11,700 nt of DNA from Murimonas intestini (GCF_024622195.1 NZ_JANKBI010000031.1:1-11700), one strand, 5' to 3'; shown: positions 1 through 9,389, counted from the first letter of the stretch. Translations and numbers: made by a program. The notes: generated by a model from the letters alone, not told the origin.

Positions 1-318
1 ATTTAATACCCACTCTATGTTGAAGGAAAAATAGAATAGTCTATATATTTTGAACATACCAAATAATTGATTCCAATGTATTTCGGGAATCCAATAAAGT
101 AGTGGCCTCACCCACCCGCCTGCCCCTCCCACTGATTCACTGCCTACAATGCAAAGCGTCCTCCCCGCCTCTAATCATCTAAACAGCAATTTAGTCAAAG
201 CCACAGAAAAAGCAGCAGAAGAACTGGGGGTGGATTTTTCTAAGTGTTTTGAACACAAAACATTTACAAAGTGGCTAAAAAAGATTAAGAGATTTTTAAG
301 GCACAGCAAAATCATACA

Positions 319-327
319 TGGTATAAT
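319..327 (+). promoter_or_regulatory. Putative extended -10 promoter element (TGgTATAAT) for the efflux operon; no convincing -35
   Basis: Perfect TGnTATAAT at 319-327, about 48 nt upstream of the ATG at 375. The AGGAGG RBS at 362-367 follows. No good -35 hexamer at 16-18 nt spacing. Confidence 0.35.
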
Positions 328-374
328 AAAATCCAAAATGGCGTAATGAAGCATATCATTCAGGAGGAAAAGAG

Positions 375-1991
375 ATGGAAACAAAGAAAAGGAAACATAT
401 TATCATAGGAGTGCTTATAACAGTCGTCATAATTGCAGCGGCAGCGGCGGCGGTATGGTTTCTGGTTTTCAGGGAGCCTTCTGCAGCTCAGTCAGCTGGT
501 GACGAGACGGCATATGTAGATTCAGTGGCAAATATAACGGGTCTTGGTTCAGGAAATGGGATGCAGGACAGGTTCTCAGGTGTTGTAGAGCCTCAGAAGA
601 CCTGGAATGTAGAGCTTGCACAGGACAGGAAGGTTAAGAATATATTTGTACAGGAGGGAGAAGAAGTAGCACTTGGAACGAATCTGTTTGAATATGATAC
701 CGCAGATCAGGAAGAGAGCCTGAACCAGGCACAGATAGATCTGGAACGCCTTCAGAATGAGATAGATACAACCAATGCTCAGATAGAGTTACTCCAGAAG
801 GAAAAAGCAAACGCTTCACAGGAGGATCAGCTGGATTATACAACACGTATACAGACTGCACAGAATACAATTAAACGTGATGAATATGATATTAAGAAGA
901 AAAATGTAGAGATAGAGCAGCTGAAAAATACCATTGCTAATTCCATCGTTACATGTGAACTGGATGGAGTAGTTAAAAAAATCAATGAGGATAACAGCAC
1001 TACATCTTCACCTATGGGAAATAGCGGGGATAACAATGCTTTCATGACAATACTTGCAACAGGGGATTACCGTGTTAAGGGAAAAATTAATGAACAGAAT
1101 ATGGCCTCTGTCATGGAGGGCCTTCCTGTGATCGTTCGTTCCAGAGTAGATGATGAAAGAATCTGGAGAGGGACGATAACTACGATTGACCGTGAGAACC
1201 CGGAGACAGATAATAACTCATCAGGAGGCTACGTTTCATATGGAATGGGCGGCGGAAGCACTACTTCAAGTGTAAATTCCACAAATTATCCTTTCTATAT
1301 AACACTTGATAATGCGGATGACCTTATGCTTGGACAGCATGTATATATTGAGATAGACAACGGGCAGGAAGACGGCGAAGAAAAGGAAGGAATCTGGCTT
1401 GACAGTTATTACATCGTCCAGGAGGACGGAAAAGCTTACGTATGGGCGGCAAATGATAAGGACAAGCTGGAAAAACGCAGCATTACTTTAGGAGAGTTAG
1501 ATGATGTCACTCAGAAATACCAGATAACAGAAGGCCTGGAGCCGGATGATTATATCACATTCCCGAGTGAGAATCTCAAGGAAGGCATGTCTGTAGTGCG
1601 GAATGTTGAACAGATGGGGATGAACATGAACGGCGGAAGCGTTGATATGATGGGCGGCGATGGCCCTGTTGACGGCGGCTCAATGGATGCCGGGCCTGGA
1701 GGCAGTGTTGATTTTCCGGAAGGCAGTGATGATATGATGCCTGGCAATGATATTATGGTGCCGGGAAATGAAGATGGTGTTATGGACAGCGGAGACGGCA
1801 TTTCGGCCGGGCCTGACGGAGAAGCAGGAAGCAACGATATGGTGGGACCACAGGAAGAAGTTCCGGAGGCGGATGGAGGTCAGGATGCCCCTGGACCTGA
1901 GGCAGGCGAAGGCGGAGAAGAAGGACCAGCAGGGCCAGAAGATGTGTCTGACCTGGGAGACGGTTTGGCGCCAACGGAAGCAGCACAATAA
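375..1991 (+). CDS. HlyD-family periplasmic adaptor / membrane-fusion protein (MFP1) with N-terminal TM anchor, long coiled-coil hairpin and Met/Asp/Gly-rich acidic C-terminal tail
   Basis: AGGAGG RBS 7 nt upstream of the ATG. The N-terminus KKRKHIIIGVLITVVIIAAAAAAVWFLVF is a signal-anchor. It is followed by a lipoyl-like half-domain (IFVQEGEEVALGTNLFEYD), a long heptad-rich alpha-hairpin, a beta-barrel and a membrane-proximal domain typical of MacA/YknX-type adaptors. The C-terminal roughly 130 aa are low-complexity acidic (DMMGGDGPVDGGSMDAGPGG...). It is paralogous to the downstream adaptor at 2694-4973. Confidence 0.85.
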   Translation: METKKRKHIIIGVLITVVIIAAAAAAVWFLVFREPSAAQSAGDETAYVDSVANITGLGSGNGMQDRFSGVVEPQKTWNVELAQDRKVKNIFVQEGEEVALGTNLFEYDTADQEESLNQAQIDLERLQNEIDTTNAQIELLQKEKANASQEDQLDYTTRIQTAQNTIKRDEYDIKKKNVEIEQLKNTIANSIVTCELDGVVKKINEDNSTTSSPMGNSGDNNAFMTILATGDYRVKGKINEQNMASVMEGLPVIVRSRVDDERIWRGTITTIDRENPETDNNSSGGYVSYGMGGGSTTSSVNSTNYPFYITLDNADDLMLGQHVYIEIDNGQEDGEEKEGIWLDSYYIVQEDGKAYVWAANDKDKLEKRSITLGELDDVTQKYQITEGLEPDDYITFPSENLKEGMSVVRNVEQMGMNMNGGSVDMMGGDGPVDGGSMDAGPGGSVDFPEGSDDMMPGNDIMVPGNEDGVMDSGDGISAGPDGEAGSNDMVGPQEEVPEADGGQDAPGPEAGEGGEEGPAGPEDVSDLGDGLAPTEAAQ

Positions 1992-2007
1992 GAATGGAGG
2001 ACTCACA

Positions 2008-2697
2008 GTGATTCTCGAATTGGATAATATCTATAAGGATTATATACAGGGGAAAATGATAGTCCCTGTATTAAAAGATATCACGCTGCATGTGGAAAAA
2101 GGAGAATATGTAGCCATAATGGGGCCTTCTGGTTCAGGTAAATCAACGCTCATGAATATTATAGGATGCCTGGATAAGCCGACAAAAGGATCGTTCCTTC
2201 TGGATGGTGTAAGCCTTTTGAATAAAAGAGATAATGAACTTGCTGAAATACGCCTGCGCAGTCTTGGTTTTGTTTTTCAGACATTCCAGCTGCTGCCAAG
2301 GCAGTCGGCAGTGGAAAACGTGGCTTTGCCTTTGATTTATGCAGGTGTGTCTAAAAGAGAAAGAATAAAAATGGCAGAAGCAGCTTTAGACAGAGTGGGT
2401 TTGAGCGACAGGTACCATTTTAAGCCTAACCAGCTTTCAGGCGGACAGAAGCAGAGGGTTGCTATTGCTAGAGCTATGGTAAATAATCCAAAGATACTGC
2501 TGGCAGATGAGCCTACAGGCGCTCTTGATTCCAAATCCAGTGCACAGGTAATGGAGCTTTTTGAGAAGCTGAATGAGGAAGGTGTCACTATTATTATGAT
2601 AACCCACGACAGAAATATAGCAGAGCATGCAAAGCGTATCGTGGATATTTTTGATGGTGAGCTTTCTGAGCATAGAGATGAGGAGGTGGCGTTGTGA
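2008..2697 (+). CDS. ABC transporter ATP-binding protein, MacB/FtsE-like stand-alone ATPase
   Basis: Walker A GPSGSGKST, Q-loop, ABC signature LSGGQKQRVAIARAM, Walker B ILLADEPTGALD and H-loop ITHD are all present. The start is taken as the in-frame GTG at 2008 with a GGAGG RBS at 1996-2000 (7 nt spacing). The longer ORF from 1747 overlaps MFP1 and is not credible. The stop TGA overlaps the next gene's GTG (GTGA). Confidence 0.9.
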   Translation: MILELDNIYKDYIQGKMIVPVLKDITLHVEKGEYVAIMGPSGSGKSTLMNIIGCLDKPTKGSFLLDGVSLLNKRDNELAEIRLRSLGFVFQTFQLLPRQSAVENVALPLIYAGVSKRERIKMAEAALDRVGLSDRYHFKPNQLSGGQKQRVAIARAMVNNPKILLADEPTGALDSKSSAQVMELFEKLNEEGVTIIMITHDRNIAEHAKRIVDIFDGELSEHRDEEVAL

Positions 2698-4973
2698 AGA
2701 AAAAGTGGATAGCCCTTATCTGCGCTGTTTCAGTCGCTGCCGTAGGCGGCGGAGGATATGGCATTTATAAAGTAGTCAGTTCAAACAGTACGCCTGTGGA
2801 TGTAGTAAAAGTATCTGATCTGAACATGGGCTGGTGGGGACAGACGACATCTACATCAGGAATGGTTTCATCAACAGTGACTCAGCAGGTACATATGACG
2901 ACAAATCAGCTGGTGAAAGAGATTTATGTAAAAGAGGGCGATGAGGTAAAGATAGGAGATCCTCTTCTGGCCTATGATATGACTCTTGCAGAGCTAGACC
3001 TGGAAATGGAACAGCTGAACGGCAATGCAATAGATCTGCAGATAACAGCAGCTGAGAAGGACCTTGAAAAATTAAAAAATGAAACACCCATCAGTGCATC
3101 TGCGGAGGCAGATATTATGAAAAACGGACAGGTGATGGTGGCTGCCTCAGAAGAGGGGGGCACTGAAGGCACAGACCCGGGGACTGAACCGGCTCCGGCA
3201 TCAGCGGAGGGGACCAGTGAGGCGGCACCGCCAGTGACGGAACCACCACAGACGGAACCTCCAGTGACAGAGGCGCCACAGACAGAACCGCCAGTGACGG
3301 AACCATCACAGACGGAGCCGCCAGTGACAGAGGCACCACAGACAGATGCATCACAGACAAACGCACCACAGACAGACACATCACAGACCAACGCACCGCA
3401 GACGGATGCATCACAGACAGACGCATCTCAGACAGGCGGTGAGACAGATCAGAGCACAGAGCCTAACACCGGGGATTCTGAGCAGACTACGGAGCCAAAT
3501 ACTGATGCAACAGAGGTTACACCCCAGGAAACAGAAGTACCGATGATCATTGATATTACAGTCGTTGTGAACCAGCAGATTGATGAGAGCCTCAGACCTG
3601 AAAAGGTGAAGGTAACTCTGAATGATACAGTTCTCAATGTAAGTAAAGAGACAGTTGAACTCACAAAGGAAAATAACTGGACTTATAAATACCTGGCTAT
3701 GCCTATAGGAGGCACATACAGTCTGACTACTGATGCAGGTGATGCATATGACATCCAGTCTGTTTATGACGAGAATACAAAGACCTTTGATCTGCTGTGC
3801 ACGCCAAAGGCATATGATAAGCTGGATGAAAAGTCAGAGCCATATAAGAAGGGGGAAGGAACGAAAAAATCCCCGGATGTATATTTCTGCCAGGAGGGTG
3901 CAAAGATCGACGCTTCATTCCTGAATAAGGTATATGGGTATGATAAGGATGGCCAGACAAGGCTGACGGACAATACAGGCAGGTATGTTGTTCTGGAAAT
4001 GAGGAAAGATGACCAGGCAAATGGAGAATTTATGAGTGCGTTTGCCATAGACGGAACACAGCCGAGAGATACGGGATTCGCACCTTCAAGTGAGTGGACA
4101 ATAAGCAGTTCAAAGCTGGAGCAGACAGGGGGCAATGAGGTTCAGGAACCAAATATAGAGGAACCTGATTTTGACTTTGGAGGCGGTTTTGATTTCGGAG
4201 GCGGTTTCGGAGGCAACGGTTATACGGCTGACCAGCTTAAGCAGGCTATAGCTGATAAAGAGAGCGAGATAAAGAAACTGAAACTGGATAAAAAAGAATC
4301 AGATTTGAAGATACAGTCACAGCAGAGAAAACTTGATAATGGAGTAGTGAAGAGTTCTATCAATGGTATTGTAAAAACTGTTGGGGATCCCAATGTAGGT
4401 GAGGTCAACAACGAACCATTTATGACGGTTGTCAGTGCAGAGGGGCTGTATGTCACAGGTTCACTCAGTGAGCTTGAATTGGAAAAAGTGAAGGTAGGTT
4501 CCATCATGACAGGGTTTGCATATGATACGGGGGCTTCATTTTCTGCCACAATCACAGAAATTTCCCCATACCCTGACACCTCAGGAAATTATTACAGAGG
4601 GAATAACAATGCATCATATTATCCGTTCACAGCCTATATAGAAGGGGACAGTACTGAGGGGTTGAGCAATTATCAGTATGTGGAGCTTCAGATTCAGGAG
4701 AGTGTAGACGCGTCTGCGGCATCCTCACTATATATTGAAAAGGCTTATATCCGCTCAGAGAACGGTCAGAGCTATGTCTATAAAAAGGACGAAAATAACA
4801 GACTGAAAAAGCAGTATATCAAGACAGGAAAGACAGTTTATTCCACAGCTATCGAAGTGAAGGAAGGTCTTTCTATGGATGACAGCATTGCTTTCCCTTA
4901 CGGGAAAAATGTAAAGGAAGGGGCAAAGGTAAAGACATCGGATGAAGATGATAATACCGTTGTTCCGATGTAG
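2694..4973 (+). CDS. HlyD-family adaptor / membrane-fusion protein (MFP2) with a roughly 370-aa insertion: Pro/Thr/Gln-rich tandem repeat spacer, Cna B-type (prealbumin-like stalk) domain and Gly-Phe motif
   Basis: GTG start overlapping the upstream stop (translational coupling), with an AGGAGG RBS at 2681-2686. The N-terminus KKKWIALICAVSVAAVGGGGYGIY is a TM anchor. A lipoyl-like half (VKEGDEVKIGDPLLAYD) and hairpin helix 1 follow. Then come the PT/Q repeats, a Cna-B-like signature (VKVTLNDTV...VELTKENNWTYKYLAMPIGGTYSLT) and FDFGGGFDFGGGFGGNG. Hairpin helix 2 (ADQLKQAIADKESEIKKLKLDKKESDLKIQ) follows, and beta-barrel and membrane-proximal domains homologous to the C-terminus of MFP1. Confidence 0.85.
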   Translation: MKKKWIALICAVSVAAVGGGGYGIYKVVSSNSTPVDVVKVSDLNMGWWGQTTSTSGMVSSTVTQQVHMTTNQLVKEIYVKEGDEVKIGDPLLAYDMTLAELDLEMEQLNGNAIDLQITAAEKDLEKLKNETPISASAEADIMKNGQVMVAASEEGGTEGTDPGTEPAPASAEGTSEAAPPVTEPPQTEPPVTEAPQTEPPVTEPSQTEPPVTEAPQTDASQTNAPQTDTSQTNAPQTDASQTDASQTGGETDQSTEPNTGDSEQTTEPNTDATEVTPQETEVPMIIDITVVVNQQIDESLRPEKVKVTLNDTVLNVSKETVELTKENNWTYKYLAMPIGGTYSLTTDAGDAYDIQSVYDENTKTFDLLCTPKAYDKLDEKSEPYKKGEGTKKSPDVYFCQEGAKIDASFLNKVYGYDKDGQTRLTDNTGRYVVLEMRKDDQANGEFMSAFAIDGTQPRDTGFAPSSEWTISSSKLEQTGGNEVQEPNIEEPDFDFGGGFDFGGGFGGNGYTADQLKQAIADKESEIKKLKLDKKESDLKIQSQQRKLDNGVVKSSINGIVKTVGDPNVGEVNNEPFMTVVSAEGLYVTGSLSELELEKVKVGSIMTGFAYDTGASFSATITEISPYPDTSGNYYRGNNNASYYPFTAYIEGDSTEGLSNYQYVELQIQESVDASAASSLYIEKAYIRSENGQSYVYKKDENNRLKKQYIKTGKTVYSTAIEVKEGLSMDDSIAFPYGKNVKEGAKVKTSDEDDNTVVPM
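3227..3440. repeat. In-frame imperfect tandem nucleotide repeats (4 x approximately 30 nt, then 6 x approximately 15 nt) encoding TEPPVTEAPQ / TDASQ / TNAPQ units
   Basis: Directly visible periodicity: ccagtgacRgaNccNccacagacRgaNcc repeated, followed by tcacagacaNacgca-type 15-mers. These account for the spurious alternate-frame and antisense ORFs at 2972-3546. Confidence 0.8.
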
Positions 4974-4984
4974 GAGGTGGAGAG

Positions 4985-6241
4985 GTGTTAGAAAATATCA
5001 GGTTGTCAATTCAGGGAATATGGTCGCATAAAATGCGTTCTTTCCTGACAATGCTTGGAATCATCATTGGTATAGCATCCATCATCTCCATTGTTTCTAC
5101 TATTCAGGGGACAAATGAGCAGATAAAGAAGAACCTGATCGGTTCAGGAAATAATACGGTGGATATCAAGCTGTATCAGGGAGACATGGAATATTATCTG
5201 GATGATTACAGCGGTATCCCAAAAGGAGTTCCTGTAGTTACAGAAAAAGTCAGGGAAGAGATGGAAAAGGTAGATGGTGTAGCCGATGTTTCGCTCTATT
5301 CCAAAAGAAGTTATGCCGACAGTGTTTATTATAAGAATACCAGTATGGATGGCGCTAATGTTATGGGGATAGATCTGCATTATTTTAATACCTGCGGGTA
5401 TATCATGCGGACAGGGCGTGAATTCATACAGCAGGATTATGATGAATTCAGAAAGGTCGTGATTCTGGATCAGACAGCGGCCACCAGCCTGTTTCAGGAG
5501 GAAGATCCTCTGGGCAAGACTATAGAGATTAAGGGTGAACCTTTCACCGTTGTGGGCGTGACAGAGAAAAGCGAGGCTTTTGAGCCTGTTATCAATTCGA
5601 TGGAGGATTACTGGACGTATATGGGGAACCAGGCCAGCGGGTTTATTTATATGCCATATGCTACCTGGTGTGTGCCCTACCAGTATGATGAGCCTCAGAA
5701 TGTAATAGTCAGGGCTAACAGCACAGATGAGATGAGTGCCGTAGGTAAGAAATGTGCTGATATTTTGAACGCATACGTCACTTCACAGGATGACGTGAAA
5801 TATAAGGCGGCTGACCTGCTTGAACAGGCTAAGGAGCTCCAGGATCTGAGCGCGGCCACAAATAACCAGCTGATATGGATCGCTAGTATTTCACTGCTTG
5901 TAGGCGGCATCGGCGTTATGAATATCATGCTTGTTTCGGTCACAGAGAGGACAAGTGAGATCGGTCTTAAAAAGGCCATAGGGGCAAAAAAGAAGAGGAT
6001 TCTCGGCCAGTTTCTTACAGAGGCGGCTGTGCTTACAAGCCTTGGAGGCATTATAGGAGTCATTGCAGGAATCGGGCTTGCCCAGGCTATCTCCAAAATG
6101 TCCCAGACGCCGGTAGCCATCAGCGTCCCGGCTATTATAGGATCCGTTATCTTTTCAATGCTTATAGGCATCATATTCGGCCTGCTGCCTTCAATCAAGG
6201 CATCAAACCTGAATCCTATCGATGCTCTGAGACATGAGTAA
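4985..6241 (+). CDS. ABC transporter permease, FtsX/MacB-type (4 TM with large extracytoplasmic domain)
   Basis: GTG start 11 nt after the upstream stop, with an AGGAGGTGGAGAG RBS. The N-terminus LENIRLSIQGIWSHKMRSFLTMLGIIIGIASIISIVS is the classic MacB/FtsX TM1. An extracytoplasmic domain of about 250 aa follows, and then three C-terminal TM helices (SISLLVGGIGVMNIMLVSVTERTSEIGLKKAIGA...). Confidence 0.85.
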   Translation: MLENIRLSIQGIWSHKMRSFLTMLGIIIGIASIISIVSTIQGTNEQIKKNLIGSGNNTVDIKLYQGDMEYYLDDYSGIPKGVPVVTEKVREEMEKVDGVADVSLYSKRSYADSVYYKNTSMDGANVMGIDLHYFNTCGYIMRTGREFIQQDYDEFRKVVILDQTAATSLFQEEDPLGKTIEIKGEPFTVVGVTEKSEAFEPVINSMEDYWTYMGNQASGFIYMPYATWCVPYQYDEPQNVIVRANSTDEMSAVGKKCADILNAYVTSQDDVKYKAADLLEQAKELQDLSAATNNQLIWIASISLLVGGIGVMNIMLVSVTERTSEIGLKKAIGAKKKRILGQFLTEAAVLTSLGGIIGVIAGIGLAQAISKMSQTPVAISVPAIIGSVIFSMLIGIIFGLLPSIKASNLNPIDALRHE

Positions 6242-6673: not shown

Positions 6674-8332
6674 ATGGAAGGGATATCTATCGGAATCATT
6701 ATTGCAGCAGTAATAGCGGTACTGATCATCATTTTGCTGGCCGCGGGCTATGTTAAAGCGCCGCCTAATAAAGCTTACATCATATCAGGTATGCGTAAGA
6801 GACCTAAGATCCTTATAGGCAGGGCAGGTTTCAGGATACCGTTTCTGGAGAGGATGAATGTACTTTACCTGAATCAGATAACTATCGATATTAAAACGGA
6901 CAATTATATACCTACTCTTGATTATATCAATGTGCAGGTGGATGCAGTTGCAAAGGTAAGGATCAACTCTGACAGTGAAGAGATGATGCTTCTCGCTATG
7001 AAAAACTTTTTGGATAAGAAGCCTTCGGAGATCGTTACAGACCTGCAGGATTCTCTTCAGGGAAATATGAGGGAAATTATCGGAACTCTGGACCTTAAGA
7101 CAATCTGCAACAACAGGGATGAATTCAGTAATCAGGTACAGGAAAAGGCTTCCGTAGACATGATGAAGCTGGGCATTGAGATTATATCCTGCAATATCCA
7201 GAATGTAGAGGACGAGCATGGCCTTATCCAGGATATGGGTATGGATAATACTTCAAAGATTAAAAAGGATGCGGCGATCGCAAAAGCAAATTCCGAAAAA
7301 GAAATCGCAATTGCCCAGGCTGAGGCTGACAAATTATCGAATGACGCCAGGGTAATCTCACAGACAGAGATAGCAAAGCGGAATAATGAGCTGGCTATCC
7401 GACAGTCAGAGCTTAAAAAAGAGGCTGACACAGTTAAGGCTGAAGCTGATATGGTCTATCAGATCAGAACAGAGGACCAGCGTAAGACTCTGGAGATTAC
7501 AAGAACAAATGCTGACATCGCAAAGCAGGAGCGGGAGATAGAGCTCAAGCAGAAGGAAGCATCGGTACGTGAACAGCAGCTGAATGCTGAGGTAAAAAAG
7601 AAAGCGGACGCCATGCGTTATGAACAGGAGCAGAAGGCTCAGGCAGAGCTGTTCAAGCGTCAGAAGGATGCTGAGGCCGCCCGTTATGAGCAGGAGCAGG
7701 AGGCAGAGGCCCAGAAGGCACGCGCCGAAGCCATGAAATTTGAAAAGGAACAGACTGCGGAAGGAATCAGGCTGGTGGGACAGGCAGAGGCTCAGGCAAT
7801 TGAAGCAAAAGGAAAAGCTGAAGCCGAAGCCATGGAAAAGAAGGCCGAAGCCTACAGTAAATATAATAAAGCCGCAATGGCTGAAATGCTCATCAATATC
7901 CTTCCTGAAATGGCCGGAAGGATTGCAGAGCCTCTCGCACAGATTGACAAGATCGTCCTGATCGGCGGCGGGGATGACGGAAGCGGTGTGAGCCAGATTG
8001 CCGGAAATGTGCCGGCTGTACTTACAAAGGTCATGGAAGCCATGAAGGAGACAACGGGTGTGGATCTTGCAGAAATCATGCGGGCCGATACGTATGATGC
8101 GAAAGTAAATAAGAATATTAATTTTACAGGATTTGACGGTCTGTTTGGCAAAGAAAAGGATAAAACAGCAGAAGCCGGAAAATCCGGGGATAAAGATTCA
8201 CACAGCGGATATGCGAAAGAGGGAAAGACAGAGGCTGAGGAAAAGGCAGCGGCAGCTACAGAGGCAGTTAAAGGCATGATGAAGGATGTAGTGAAGGATG
8301 TAAGGGACGCATTCAATAAAGATAAAAAGTAG
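6674..8332 (+). CDS. floT: Flotillin-like SPFH/band-7 protein (FloT/YuaG-like) with EA-rich coiled-coil repeats
   Basis: ATG at 6674 with an AGGAGG RBS at 6661-6666. The TTG at 6632 used by the ORF track lacks an RBS. N-terminal membrane hairpin IGIIIAAVIAVLIIILLAAGY, then an SPFH core (AYIISGMRKRPKILIGRAGFRIPFLERMNVLYLNQITIDIKT...). A long Glu/Ala/Lys/Gln-rich coiled coil follows (AEAQKARAEAMKFEKEQTAEG...AEAQAIEAKGKAEAEAMEKKAEA), typical of bacterial flotillins. Confidence 0.85.
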   Translation: MEGISIGIIIAAVIAVLIIILLAAGYVKAPPNKAYIISGMRKRPKILIGRAGFRIPFLERMNVLYLNQITIDIKTDNYIPTLDYINVQVDAVAKVRINSDSEEMMLLAMKNFLDKKPSEIVTDLQDSLQGNMREIIGTLDLKTICNNRDEFSNQVQEKASVDMMKLGIEIISCNIQNVEDEHGLIQDMGMDNTSKIKKDAAIAKANSEKEIAIAQAEADKLSNDARVISQTEIAKRNNELAIRQSELKKEADTVKAEADMVYQIRTEDQRKTLEITRTNADIAKQEREIELKQKEASVREQQLNAEVKKKADAMRYEQEQKAQAELFKRQKDAEAARYEQEQEAEAQKARAEAMKFEKEQTAEGIRLVGQAEAQAIEAKGKAEAEAMEKKAEAYSKYNKAAMAEMLINILPEMAGRIAEPLAQIDKIVLIGGGDDGSGVSQIAGNVPAVLTKVMEAMKETTGVDLAEIMRADTYDAKVNKNINFTGFDGLFGKEKDKTAEAGKSGDKDSHSGYAKEGKTEAEEKAAAATEAVKGMMKDVVKDVRDAFNKDKK

Positions 8333-8480: not shown

Positions 8481-9389
8481 ATGAATATTTTAGTGACGGG
8501 TGGAACTGTATTTGTCAGTAAATATATAGCAAATTATTTTAAGAATAATAATGAAGTTTTTGTGTTGAATAGAAATACTAAGAAACAGCTTGATGGAGTA
8601 CATCTAATAGAAGCTGACCGTCATAATTTGGGTAATATTTTGAAAGAATACAATTTTGATGCTGTTTTGGACATTTGTGCCTATACCGGAGAAGATGTAA
8701 GTGATTTGGCAGATGCTCTTCCAGATGGGGTCAAAGACTATATACTTATTAGTTCATCAGCAGTATATCCCGAAACAAATGTACAGCCTTTTACAGAAGA
8801 ACAGGAAATAGGAAGTAACTCTATTTGGGGAAACTATGGAACAAATAAAATTGAGGCTGAGAAAATCCTGTCCTCGAGAATGCCTGCAGCATATATTTTG
8901 CGTCCGCCATATCTGTATGGACCAATGCAGAATGTTTATCGTGAGCCTTTTGTTTTTGAGTGTGCATTATCTGATAGAGTTTTTTATATTCCAAAAGATG
9001 GAACAATGAAAATGCAGTTTTTTCATGTTGAAGATTTATGCAGAGTGATTGCCAAAATCATTGAAACACATCCTGATTATCATATTATAAATGTAGGAAA
9101 TAAGAATTTAGTCAATATTAACGAATTTGTATCGTTATGTTATAAGGTGGTTGGAAAAGAATTAAAAATAGTAAATGTTTATAATCATGAAAATCAGAGA
9201 GATTATTTCAGCTTTCATGACTACGAATATTATTTAGATGTCACAAAACAAAATGAATTGATTGATAATACAAAAGACTTAGAAGATGGGTTACGAGAAT
9301 CGTTTGAGTGGTATATAAAGCATAGTGAAGAAGTTTCTAGGAAAAATTATATTGATTTTATTGAATCACATAAAGGATTGTGGCAGTGA
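8481..9389 (+). CDS. NAD-dependent epimerase/dehydratase family protein (extended SDR), AT-rich
   Basis: AGAGGAG RBS 8 nt upstream. N-terminal Rossmann motif ILVTGGTVFVS. Catalytic YxxxK present (YGTNK). Length of about 300 aa fits NDP-sugar epimerase/reductase-like SDRs. The GC content is markedly lower than neighbouring genes. Confidence 0.8.
   Translation: MNILVTGGTVFVSKYIANYFKNNNEVFVLNRNTKKQLDGVHLIEADRHNLGNILKEYNFDAVLDICAYTGEDVSDLADALPDGVKDYILISSSAVYPETNVQPFTEEQEIGSNSIWGNYGTNKIEAEKILSSRMPAAYILRPPYLYGPMQNVYREPFVFECALSDRVFYIPKDGTMKMQFFHVEDLCRVIAKIIETHPDYHIINVGNKNLVNINEFVSLCYKVVGKELKIVNVYNHENQRDYFSFHDYEYYLDVTKQNELIDNTKDLEDGLRESFEWYIKHSEEVSRKNYIDFIESHKGLWQ

Follow-up and report, generated by a model that had tools for sequence, protein, structure and literature searches.

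The characterised MacB-type ATP-binding cassette (ABC) systems of Gram-positive bacteria, YknXYZ, Spr0693-0695 and AS-48EFGH, have the ATPase and the permease as separate proteins and use one adaptor (PMC5985334, PMC8277102). One recognised gap is the role that adaptors play where bacteria lack an outer membrane (PMC4338810, PMC5985334). Another is whether the functional unit of an adaptor is a dimer with split roles, an idea resting mainly on one resistance-nodulation-division (RND) system, TriABC. Here we analysed a stretch of 11,700 nucleotides from Murimonas intestini, Lachnospiraceae (NZ_JANKBI010000031.1:1-11700, referred to as the window), which carries at 375-6241 the genes of a membrane-fusion protein (MFP1), an ABC ATPase, a second membrane-fusion protein (MFP2) and a permease. 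This is a conserved, uncharacterised two-adaptor MacB-type system, in which the second adaptor bears a surface-protein-like insert with an orphan domain. An earlier note on this DNA had suggested that the arrangement is uncharacterised, and we likewise found no paper in the searchable literature that characterises the locus, its arrangement or its orthologues.

The closest described systems each share a part of this layout. Spr0693-0694-0695 of Streptococcus pneumoniae (PDB 5xu0, 5xu1; PMC5768738) is also Gram-positive, and a single operon encodes its adaptor, ATPase and MacB-type permease as separate proteins. However, it has a single adaptor in the order adaptor-ATPase-permease, lacking a second adaptor and a hairpin-tip insertion. 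YknWXYZ of Bacillus subtilis and B. amyloliquefaciens resembles the window system in its split YknY/YknZ and its YknX adaptor, and the homologues of MFP1 and MFP2 have YknX-type Pfam domains. It differs in combining the single adaptor with YknW, a Yip1-like protein with four transmembrane (TM) segments; no YknW-like open reading frame (ORF) was found in or beside the window operon. With MacAB-TolC of Gram-negative bacteria the window system shares an adaptor fold that matches MacA, and its permease and ATPase are each the homologue of one half of MacB. In contrast, MacB is a fused protein served by one homo-hexameric adaptor that docks to TolC, whereas the window system is split, has two adaptors and faces no outer membrane or duct.

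In TriABC-OpmH of Pseudomonas aeruginosa, as in the window, the transporter and a pair of paralogous adaptors come from a single operon. TriA and TriB are 36% identical, both are required and play distinct roles, and they serve as a model for hetero-oligomeric adaptor rings (PMC4338810, PMC13328181). That system is a proton-driven RND pump of a Gram-negative host with an outer-membrane factor, and its adaptor genes are adjacent and without a tip insertion. The window locus is no RND system: its transporter is of the ABC/MacB type, its host belongs to Lachnospiraceae, and no outer-membrane-factor gene lies in the window. In Desulfitobacterium hafniense, DSY0927 is a predicted fusion of two different membrane-fusion proteins accompanying an ABC transporter (PMC4338810). 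This Firmicutes ABC system, described from bioinformatics only, also offers two different adaptor units per transporter, but as one fused polypeptide with halves resembling adaptors of the major facilitator superfamily (MFS) and RND types, and with no orphan insert reported. When we looked for two-adaptor ABC systems in the searchable literature, only TriABC (RND) and the DSY0927 fusion turned up, and within that literature TriABC is the only characterised two-adaptor pump. VarACDEF of Vibrio cholerae was considered as a further precedent and rejected, as it has one adaptor, VarA, and a 40-residue remnant (PMC5595328).

The genes and signals of the window operon are as follows.

375-1991, + strand: MFP1, canonical YknX/MacA-type membrane-fusion protein (RND_mfp, YknX Pfam domains, MacA, Spr0693); ATG start, 538 residues, AGGAGG at 362-367
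2008-2697, + strand: ABC ATPase, type of YknY and the MacB nucleotide-binding domain (ABC_tran, NF007826, intact motifs); GTG start, 229 residues, GGAGGA at 1996-2001
2694-4973, + strand: MFP2, adaptor and paralogue of MFP1 (BLASTP against MFP1, RND_mfp, AlphaFold2 (AF2) model, Foldseek); GTG start, 759 residues, start preceded by GAGGAGGTGG
4985-6241, + strand: MacB-type permease of the YknZ/Spr0695 type (MacB_PCD, FtsX, 5lil, 5xu1_M, four TM segments); GTG start, 418 residues
6381-6400 plus T-run (feature to 6410), + strand: intrinsic terminator with an 8-bp stem containing 6 GC pairs, which ends the operon
319-327, + strand: candidate extended -10 element TGgTATAAT, 48 nt 5' of the MFP1 start, with a poor -35

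The genes at 375-6241 form one operon, given the spacings of 16, -4 and 11 nt, a ribosome-binding site upstream of each of the four genes and a single terminator. Read from the sequence, the MFP1 and ATPase genes are separated by 16 nt (1992-2007), where the earlier note had counted 14; its GTGA overlap between the ATPase stop and the MFP2 start (2694-2697) and its 11-nt gap between the MFP2 stop and the permease start were both found, as were its three GTG starts at 2008, 2694 and 4985. A terminator scan revealed no terminator-like site between the four genes, and the only strong, credible terminator on the + strand is the one 3' of the permease. We also looked for a promoter and a terminator between MFP1 and the ATPase, which would have assigned MFP1 to a separate upstream system, and found neither. 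Apart from the one gap, the operon with its four ORFs was described correctly, but the suggestion that the close packing imposes a fixed stoichiometry through co-translation over-read it, since overlaps and short gaps fit coupled expression and do not fix ratios. Two public annotations differ in the start of the ATPase, namely ATG 1942 (251 residues, overlapping MFP1 by 50 nt) and GTG 2008 (229 residues). We rejected ATG 1942 in favour of GTG 2008 because the homologues span 224-231 residues, a ribosome-binding site precedes GTG 2008, and the NCBIfam alignment runs from residue 2 onward. The promoter element at 319-327 was read by eye and does not appear in the list of the consensus scan, so it stays a candidate. 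In an Rfam scan, neither the operon nor the ~960 nt upstream of MFP1 in L001 gave a family, riboswitch or leader; the lone match was a spurious miRNA well below threshold.

The ATPase matches ABC_tran (2e-35, above the Pfam cut-off) and aligns with residues 4-224 of MacB in NF007826 (4.4e-79). Its Walker A (GPSGSGKS), ABC signature (LSGGQ) and H-loop (ITH) motifs are intact, and the Walker B motif ILLADE was read from the translation. The permease matches MacB_PCD at residues 19-255 (1.2e-34) and FtsX at residues 299-411 (7.9e-23), both above the Pfam cut-offs. Its four hydrophobic segments (19-37, 299-317, 347-365, 383-401) leave a loop of 260 residues between TM1 and TM2, which carries the extracytoplasmic MacB_PCD domain. 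Over its full length the permease matches MacB (5lil, 5.9e-56) and Spr0695 (5xu1_M, 6.1e-54), while the extracellular domain of YknZ gives only a distant match (4.6e-8). Thus four TM segments, MacB_PCD between TM1 and TM2, an FtsX-type C-terminal bundle and a cognate ATPase are all present, as in MacB-type (type VII) permeases.

Related classes fit less well. E. coli MacB proper (equivalog NF007826) is a fused polypeptide of ~650 residues with a cut-off of 966 bits, whereas the window has two separate genes that score 266 and 180 bits. The scores for FtsEX stay below the cut-offs (FtsX_Gpos 22.8 bits against 225; FtsE 219.6 against 264.85), and the FtsX, LolC and DevC models score the permease far under theirs. 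A BceAB-type transporter is not indicated either, as the permease has 418 residues and 4 TM segments rather than 10, and no kinase or regulator gene occurs in the window or in locus L001. The locus encodes an ABC machine of the Gram-positive MacB type (type VII, mechanotransmission) with split ATPase and permease. Its core would resemble YknYZ and Spr0694-0695, with a dimer of the ATPase and a dimer of the permease. The split itself, which had been regarded as unusual, is the normal Gram-positive layout, being found in YknXYZ, Spr0693-0695 and AS-48EFGH alike (PMC5985334, PMC8277102).

MFP1 and MFP2 align with 27% identity over 245 residues (BLASTP, E 2e-17) and with 28% across the N-terminal 140 residues. 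We conclude from these alignments that they are paralogues, so that the ATPase gene is flanked by two paralogous adaptors, as had been proposed. Both match RND_mfp (3e-19 for MFP1, 1e-15 for MFP2) below the curated NCBIfam cut-off; hence the domain calls of the earlier note stand above the Pfam cut-offs for ABC_tran, MacB_PCD and FtsX, but not at the curated level for the adaptors. MFP1 has a single N-terminal TM helix (residues 9-27), precomputed Pfam domains BSH_YknX and Beta-barrel_YknX, and PDB matches to MacA (4dk0, 6.6e-6) and Spr0693 (5xu0, 2.4e-4). A single TM helix (residues 6-24) is likewise present at the N-terminus of MFP2, which has no Pfam match above threshold. Its family profile matches Spr0693 (6.1e-16), and Foldseek assigned its AF2 model to AcrA, MacA, MexA, BesA and Spr0693 with probability 1.00. 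With its TM anchor, and with a split lipoyl domain, an alpha-hairpin, a beta-barrel and a membrane-proximal domain according to the AF2 model and Foldseek, MFP2 has the YknX/MacA-type architecture. MFP1 belongs to the same adaptor class by its RND_mfp, YknX Pfam and MacA matches and its TM helix.

The alignment of the two adaptors is interrupted between MFP2 residues ~130 and ~525, a region composed of the following parts, with the flanking helix and core given for reference (pLDDT, predicted local distance difference test).

2982-3077, + strand: hairpin helix 1 of MFP2 (residues 97-128; AF2, pLDDT ~90)
3117-3548, + strand: disordered linker rich in Pro/Thr/Glu/Gln (residues ~142-285, ~145 residues; pLDDT <50 and composition)
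3582-3752, + strand: borderline, tentative Cna_B-like beta module (residues ~297-353; Pfam Cna_B E 8.5e-4)
3831-4109, + strand: domain X, an orphan domain of 93 residues (380-472) with the motif PYxGEGTxxxPYxFxC...LEIR...DGT...W
4125-4223, + strand: short return linker, acidic and rich in Gly/Phe (residues ~478-510, ~33 residues; pLDDT <50)
4227-4337, + strand: hairpin helix 2 (residues 512-548; AF2, pLDDT ~90)
4338-4934, + strand: C-terminal core with the second lipoyl half, beta-barrel and membrane-proximal domain (aligned with MFP1 166-407; AF2 strands, Foldseek)

In the AF2 model of MFP2, the hairpin arms and core domains mostly show high pLDDT (~75-94), residues 142-348 are disordered, ~350-480 fold into a module and ~480-507 form a disordered linker. 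Because these disordered and folded stretches fall between the helices 97-128 and 512-548, the insert is placed at the tip of the hairpin. MFP2 is accordingly a canonical adaptor with a hairpin-tip insertion of ~380 residues (~130-510), which confirms the stalk-domain insertion noted earlier. The insert resembles a surface protein in its Pro/Thr repeats, its borderline Cna_B module and domain X. The Cna_B match reaches 20.2 bits against a cut-off of 22.3, and the AF2 confidence is low there. Part of the Pro/Thr linker is encoded by tandem repeats of 15, 30 and 60 nt at 3223-3435 (Tandem Repeats Finder), and an 18-nt tandem repeat lies at 4169-4207 in the coding region of the return linker. Domain X is confined almost entirely to the MFP2 adaptor family, and it shows no recognisable catalytic or binding fold and no detectable fold relative.

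Among MFP2 homologues, the total length ranges from 549 to 1124 residues, and the insert varies greatly in length and content. The longer proteins P0011-P0018 (~1050-1120 residues) contain extra conserved insert modules that the window protein does not have, among them one around 'KMNQSLNKFL...HFxE...TY' and a Cna_B-like one, 'VTVQWNHGTN...WP'. The insert is thus modular, with differences among lineages. The adaptor core of MFP2 is intact, as an alignment of 20 diverse MFP2 homologues retains 42 invariant columns, and the MFP2 ORF is intact at every locus.

MFP1 ends in a low-complexity tail.

1599-1988, + strand: C-terminal low-complexity tail of MFP1 (residues 409-538; composition; no Pfam match)

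Gly and Asp plus Glu each make up 24% of the tail, Pro 10% and Met 8%; His and Cys are absent, and the tail is probably disordered. Across 120 MFP1 homologues the tails measure 25-333 residues (median 86); their sequence is not conserved, but the acidic, Gly- and Met-rich composition is, with 5-14% Met in the sampled tails. The earlier description of this Met-rich tail as metal-like is not borne out, and a metal-binding reading finds no support, as His, Cys, a Pfam match and a conserved motif are all missing. Some MFP2 proteins, such as P0005, likewise end in long acidic tails.

The species genomes of GTDB were scanned with an MFP2-family seed, and the loci were annotated by hidden Markov models made from the window proteins. 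At least 24 loci were found, in Lachnospiraceae, Oscillospiraceae, "Clostridiales" and "Bacillota". Among the matches listed, all 14 with complete flanks and an ATPase gene show the order MFP1-ATPase-MFP2-permease. A further 7, truncated at contig ends, fit it, L017 and L019 lack the ATPase gene, and one (L036) is an unrelated single-adaptor system. Look-ups seeded with MFP1 returned the cassette in 5 of 5 cases, including the complete genome of Marvinbryantia formatexigens and Catenibacillus scindens. The same four-gene order is present in Blautia (L007, L008), in a metagenome contig (L009) and in Muricoprocola (L010), and the 4-nt overlap of ATPase and MFP2 recurs in L007, L009, L038, L039, L040 and L041. 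The context search that had been suggested thus finds the cassette again, among the loci listed, in every related one with enough flank except three without an ATPase gene, and the arrangement is not a chance one.

In a neighbor-joining tree of the C-terminal cores, the MFP1 and MFP2 proteins separate into two clean clades with largely matching sub-topologies. The mean identity is 45% among MFP1s, 39% among MFP2s and 24% between the two. From the two clades and their matching topology, the duplication is older than the split of Lachnospiraceae and Oscillospiraceae, and the adaptors have co-diverged since. We regard them, on the evidence of the tree, as an ancient pair co-inherited since before that split, and the cassette is a conserved, vertically inherited family of gut Clostridia rather than a local oddity. 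This family and the orphan domain in the MFP2 insert are the points that the earlier note missed. Around the cassette the synteny is of housekeeping genes (hisS-aspS, glyA, cassette, rpsB-tsf), and neither two-component-system nor bacteriocin genes were seen among its listed neighbours. Such a setting suggests that the cassette was not acquired and that it serves intrinsic resistance or a constitutive function in the envelope.

It seems on balance probable that MFP1 and MFP2 form one hetero-oligomeric ring on the permease dimer, with the MFP2 insert at the distal mouth, and that the machine pumps out a molecule that is membrane-active or belongs to the envelope. The split ATPase-permease would then be served by two non-redundant adaptors. 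Their co-inheritance is consistent with co-assembly into a single ring, most simply a trimer of MFP1-MFP2 dimers, by analogy with what has been proposed for TriA/TriB. A shared alpha-barrel is compatible with the hairpin arms of both adaptors, which are of similar length (~32-38 residues each). The tip insert of MFP2 would sit at the distal mouth of the adaptor tunnel. Since the return linker has ~33 residues, domain X may be tethered within roughly 10 nm of this mouth, where it would lie in the inner wall zone or the peptidoglycan, and the long Pro/Thr segment would loop into the wall. Its cargo would most likely be a membrane-active or envelope-located molecule, such as a peptide, a lipid or a bile-like amphiphile, expelled from the outer leaflet or the wall space, as has been proposed for MacB, YknXYZ and Spr0693-0695.

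Several observations weigh against the shared-ring reading. Both adaptors score under the curated NCBIfam and Pfam cut-offs. Closure of the barrel could be hindered by the ~380 residues inserted at the tip of the MFP2 hairpin. About one third of the MFP2 orthologues have no detectable domain X (L014, L021, L024, L025, L027, L028, L030, L033, L034), and the insert therefore has no single conserved head. Finally, in L012, L017 and L019 the MFP1, MFP2 and permease genes are adjacent, and no ABC_tran ORF lies within ~7 kb (E<1e-5); there, the ATPase may be encoded elsewhere, or the cassette may be changing in the lineage. These loci span 5647-8842 in L012, 6980-11371 in L017 and 6935-11287 in L019, and Blautia sp. 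UMGS97 is among them.

The alternatives concern what the second adaptor does. MFP1 and MFP2 could each form homo-hexamers that compete for one ATPase-permease dimer, so that a single motor would drive two pumps differing in exit or substrate. MacA, YknX and Spr0693 all form homo-hexamers (PMC8277102), both adaptors retain the full core and the TM anchor, and the variability of the MFP2 insert, in content and with homologues of 549-1124 residues, is what one expects of a specialised alternative module. However, such interchangeable adaptors should often lose one partner, and no loss was seen; instead, their strict co-inheritance within a single operon goes back a long time, with matching tree topologies, and the tight ATPase-MFP2 overlap suggests co-expression, not alternation. 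We consider these competing assemblies unlikely. Still somewhat less likely, in our judgement, is that MFP2 is an output module and not a channel-former. Here the motor would move the MFP2 coiled coil and its wall-embedded tip of Cna_B-like stalk and domain X, and MFP1 would act as conventional adaptor or stator, by analogy with FtsEX driving EnvC, PcsB and CwlO; the task could be anchoring, gating, signalling or remodelling at the wall or surface. Mechanical work without transport is known for MacB-family motors (FtsEX, LolCDE; PMC5985334), and the position of the insert between two long helices, the restriction of domain X to the MFP2 adaptor family and the housekeeping neighbourhood would all suit this role. 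On the other hand, MFP2 keeps the complete lipoyl, barrel and membrane-proximal core of an adaptor, the permease is far nearer to MacB/Spr0695 (~1e-54) than to FtsX (22.8 bits against 225), and domain X shows no recognisable catalytic or binding fold and is missing from many orthologues.

One might also suppose that MFP2 is a decaying duplicate, or that MFP1 comes from a different, merely adjacent system, as the annotation of MFP2 orthologues as 'hypothetical protein' and the lack of a Pfam match above threshold could suggest. The conservation data contradict both, given the MFP2 ORF intact at every locus with its 42 invariant columns, the 16-nt gap between MFP1 and ATPase with no terminator, and the adjacency kept in all loci. 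We hold this explanation to be very improbable. Beyond the shared ring favoured above, a bolder form can be proposed, in which an obligate 3:3 hetero-hexameric ring stands on the MacB-type motor and the MFP2 tip module, made up of the Pro/Thr loop, the Cna_B-like stalk and domain X, is a wall-embedded functional head that serves as gate, wall anchor or ligand receptor and is positioned or moved by the ATPase cycle. This proposal is tentative, and we would sooner expect it to fail than to hold.

If the 3:3 ring is correct, no ABC pump with two adaptors would precede this system, nor any two-adaptor pump from a single-membrane bacterium. With a wall-embedded head in addition, abundant gut Clostridia would share a conserved mechanotransmission device that spans the Gram-positive envelope and is new in kind. 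The role of adaptors in bacteria without an outer membrane and the dimeric adaptor unit both become directly testable, as the cassette occurs in cultivable gut Lachnospiraceae (Murimonas intestini, Marvinbryantia formatexigens, Catenibacillus scindens, Blautia). The cassette also shows that the hairpin tip of an adaptor can bear an insert like a surface protein, with an orphan domain restricted to the family. This architecture is masked by current annotation, because MFP2 orthologues are labelled "hypothetical protein", as with BRYFOR_06141 in Marvinbryantia; at NCBI, MFP1 is named "efflux RND transporter periplasmic adaptor subunit" and the permease "ABC transporter permease".

Some further observations concern the cassette and its surroundings. 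One metagenome protein call (P0227, ENA contig, 690 residues) fuses an MFP1-type adaptor to an ABC ATPase; this is probably a read-through or assembly artefact, as the topology makes a real fusion unlikely. Between glyA and MFP1, the window genome has a stretch of ~960 nt in which no gene was called (window 1-374; L001 6718-7681). About 10 other loci have a divergent lipoprotein-like gene upstream of MFP1 (~355-440 residues, weak DUF5105 matches), located on the - strand at 3112-4428 in L007, 942-2009 in L009, 3619-4701 in L010, 5663-6802 in L037, 2775-3959 in L040 and 3028-4092 in L041. A lipobox such as LTGC occurs in those of L009 and L010, and glyA lies between this gene and MFP1 in L040 and L041. 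In the window genome the gene is not beside the cassette, and tblastn of the upstream gap returned no remnant (best E 1.6). The lipoprotein-like gene could be a lineage-specific partner.

On the 3' side, rpsB-tsf directly follows the permease in most related genomes, while two genes intervene in the window. One encodes a flotillin/SPFH protein at 6674-8332, where gene callers place the start at ATG 6674 and the longest ORF begins at TTG 6632. The other encodes an NAD-dependent epimerase at 8481-9389. The GC content of the epimerase region is markedly low (0.30-0.35 against ~0.42), which suggests that it was inserted later.

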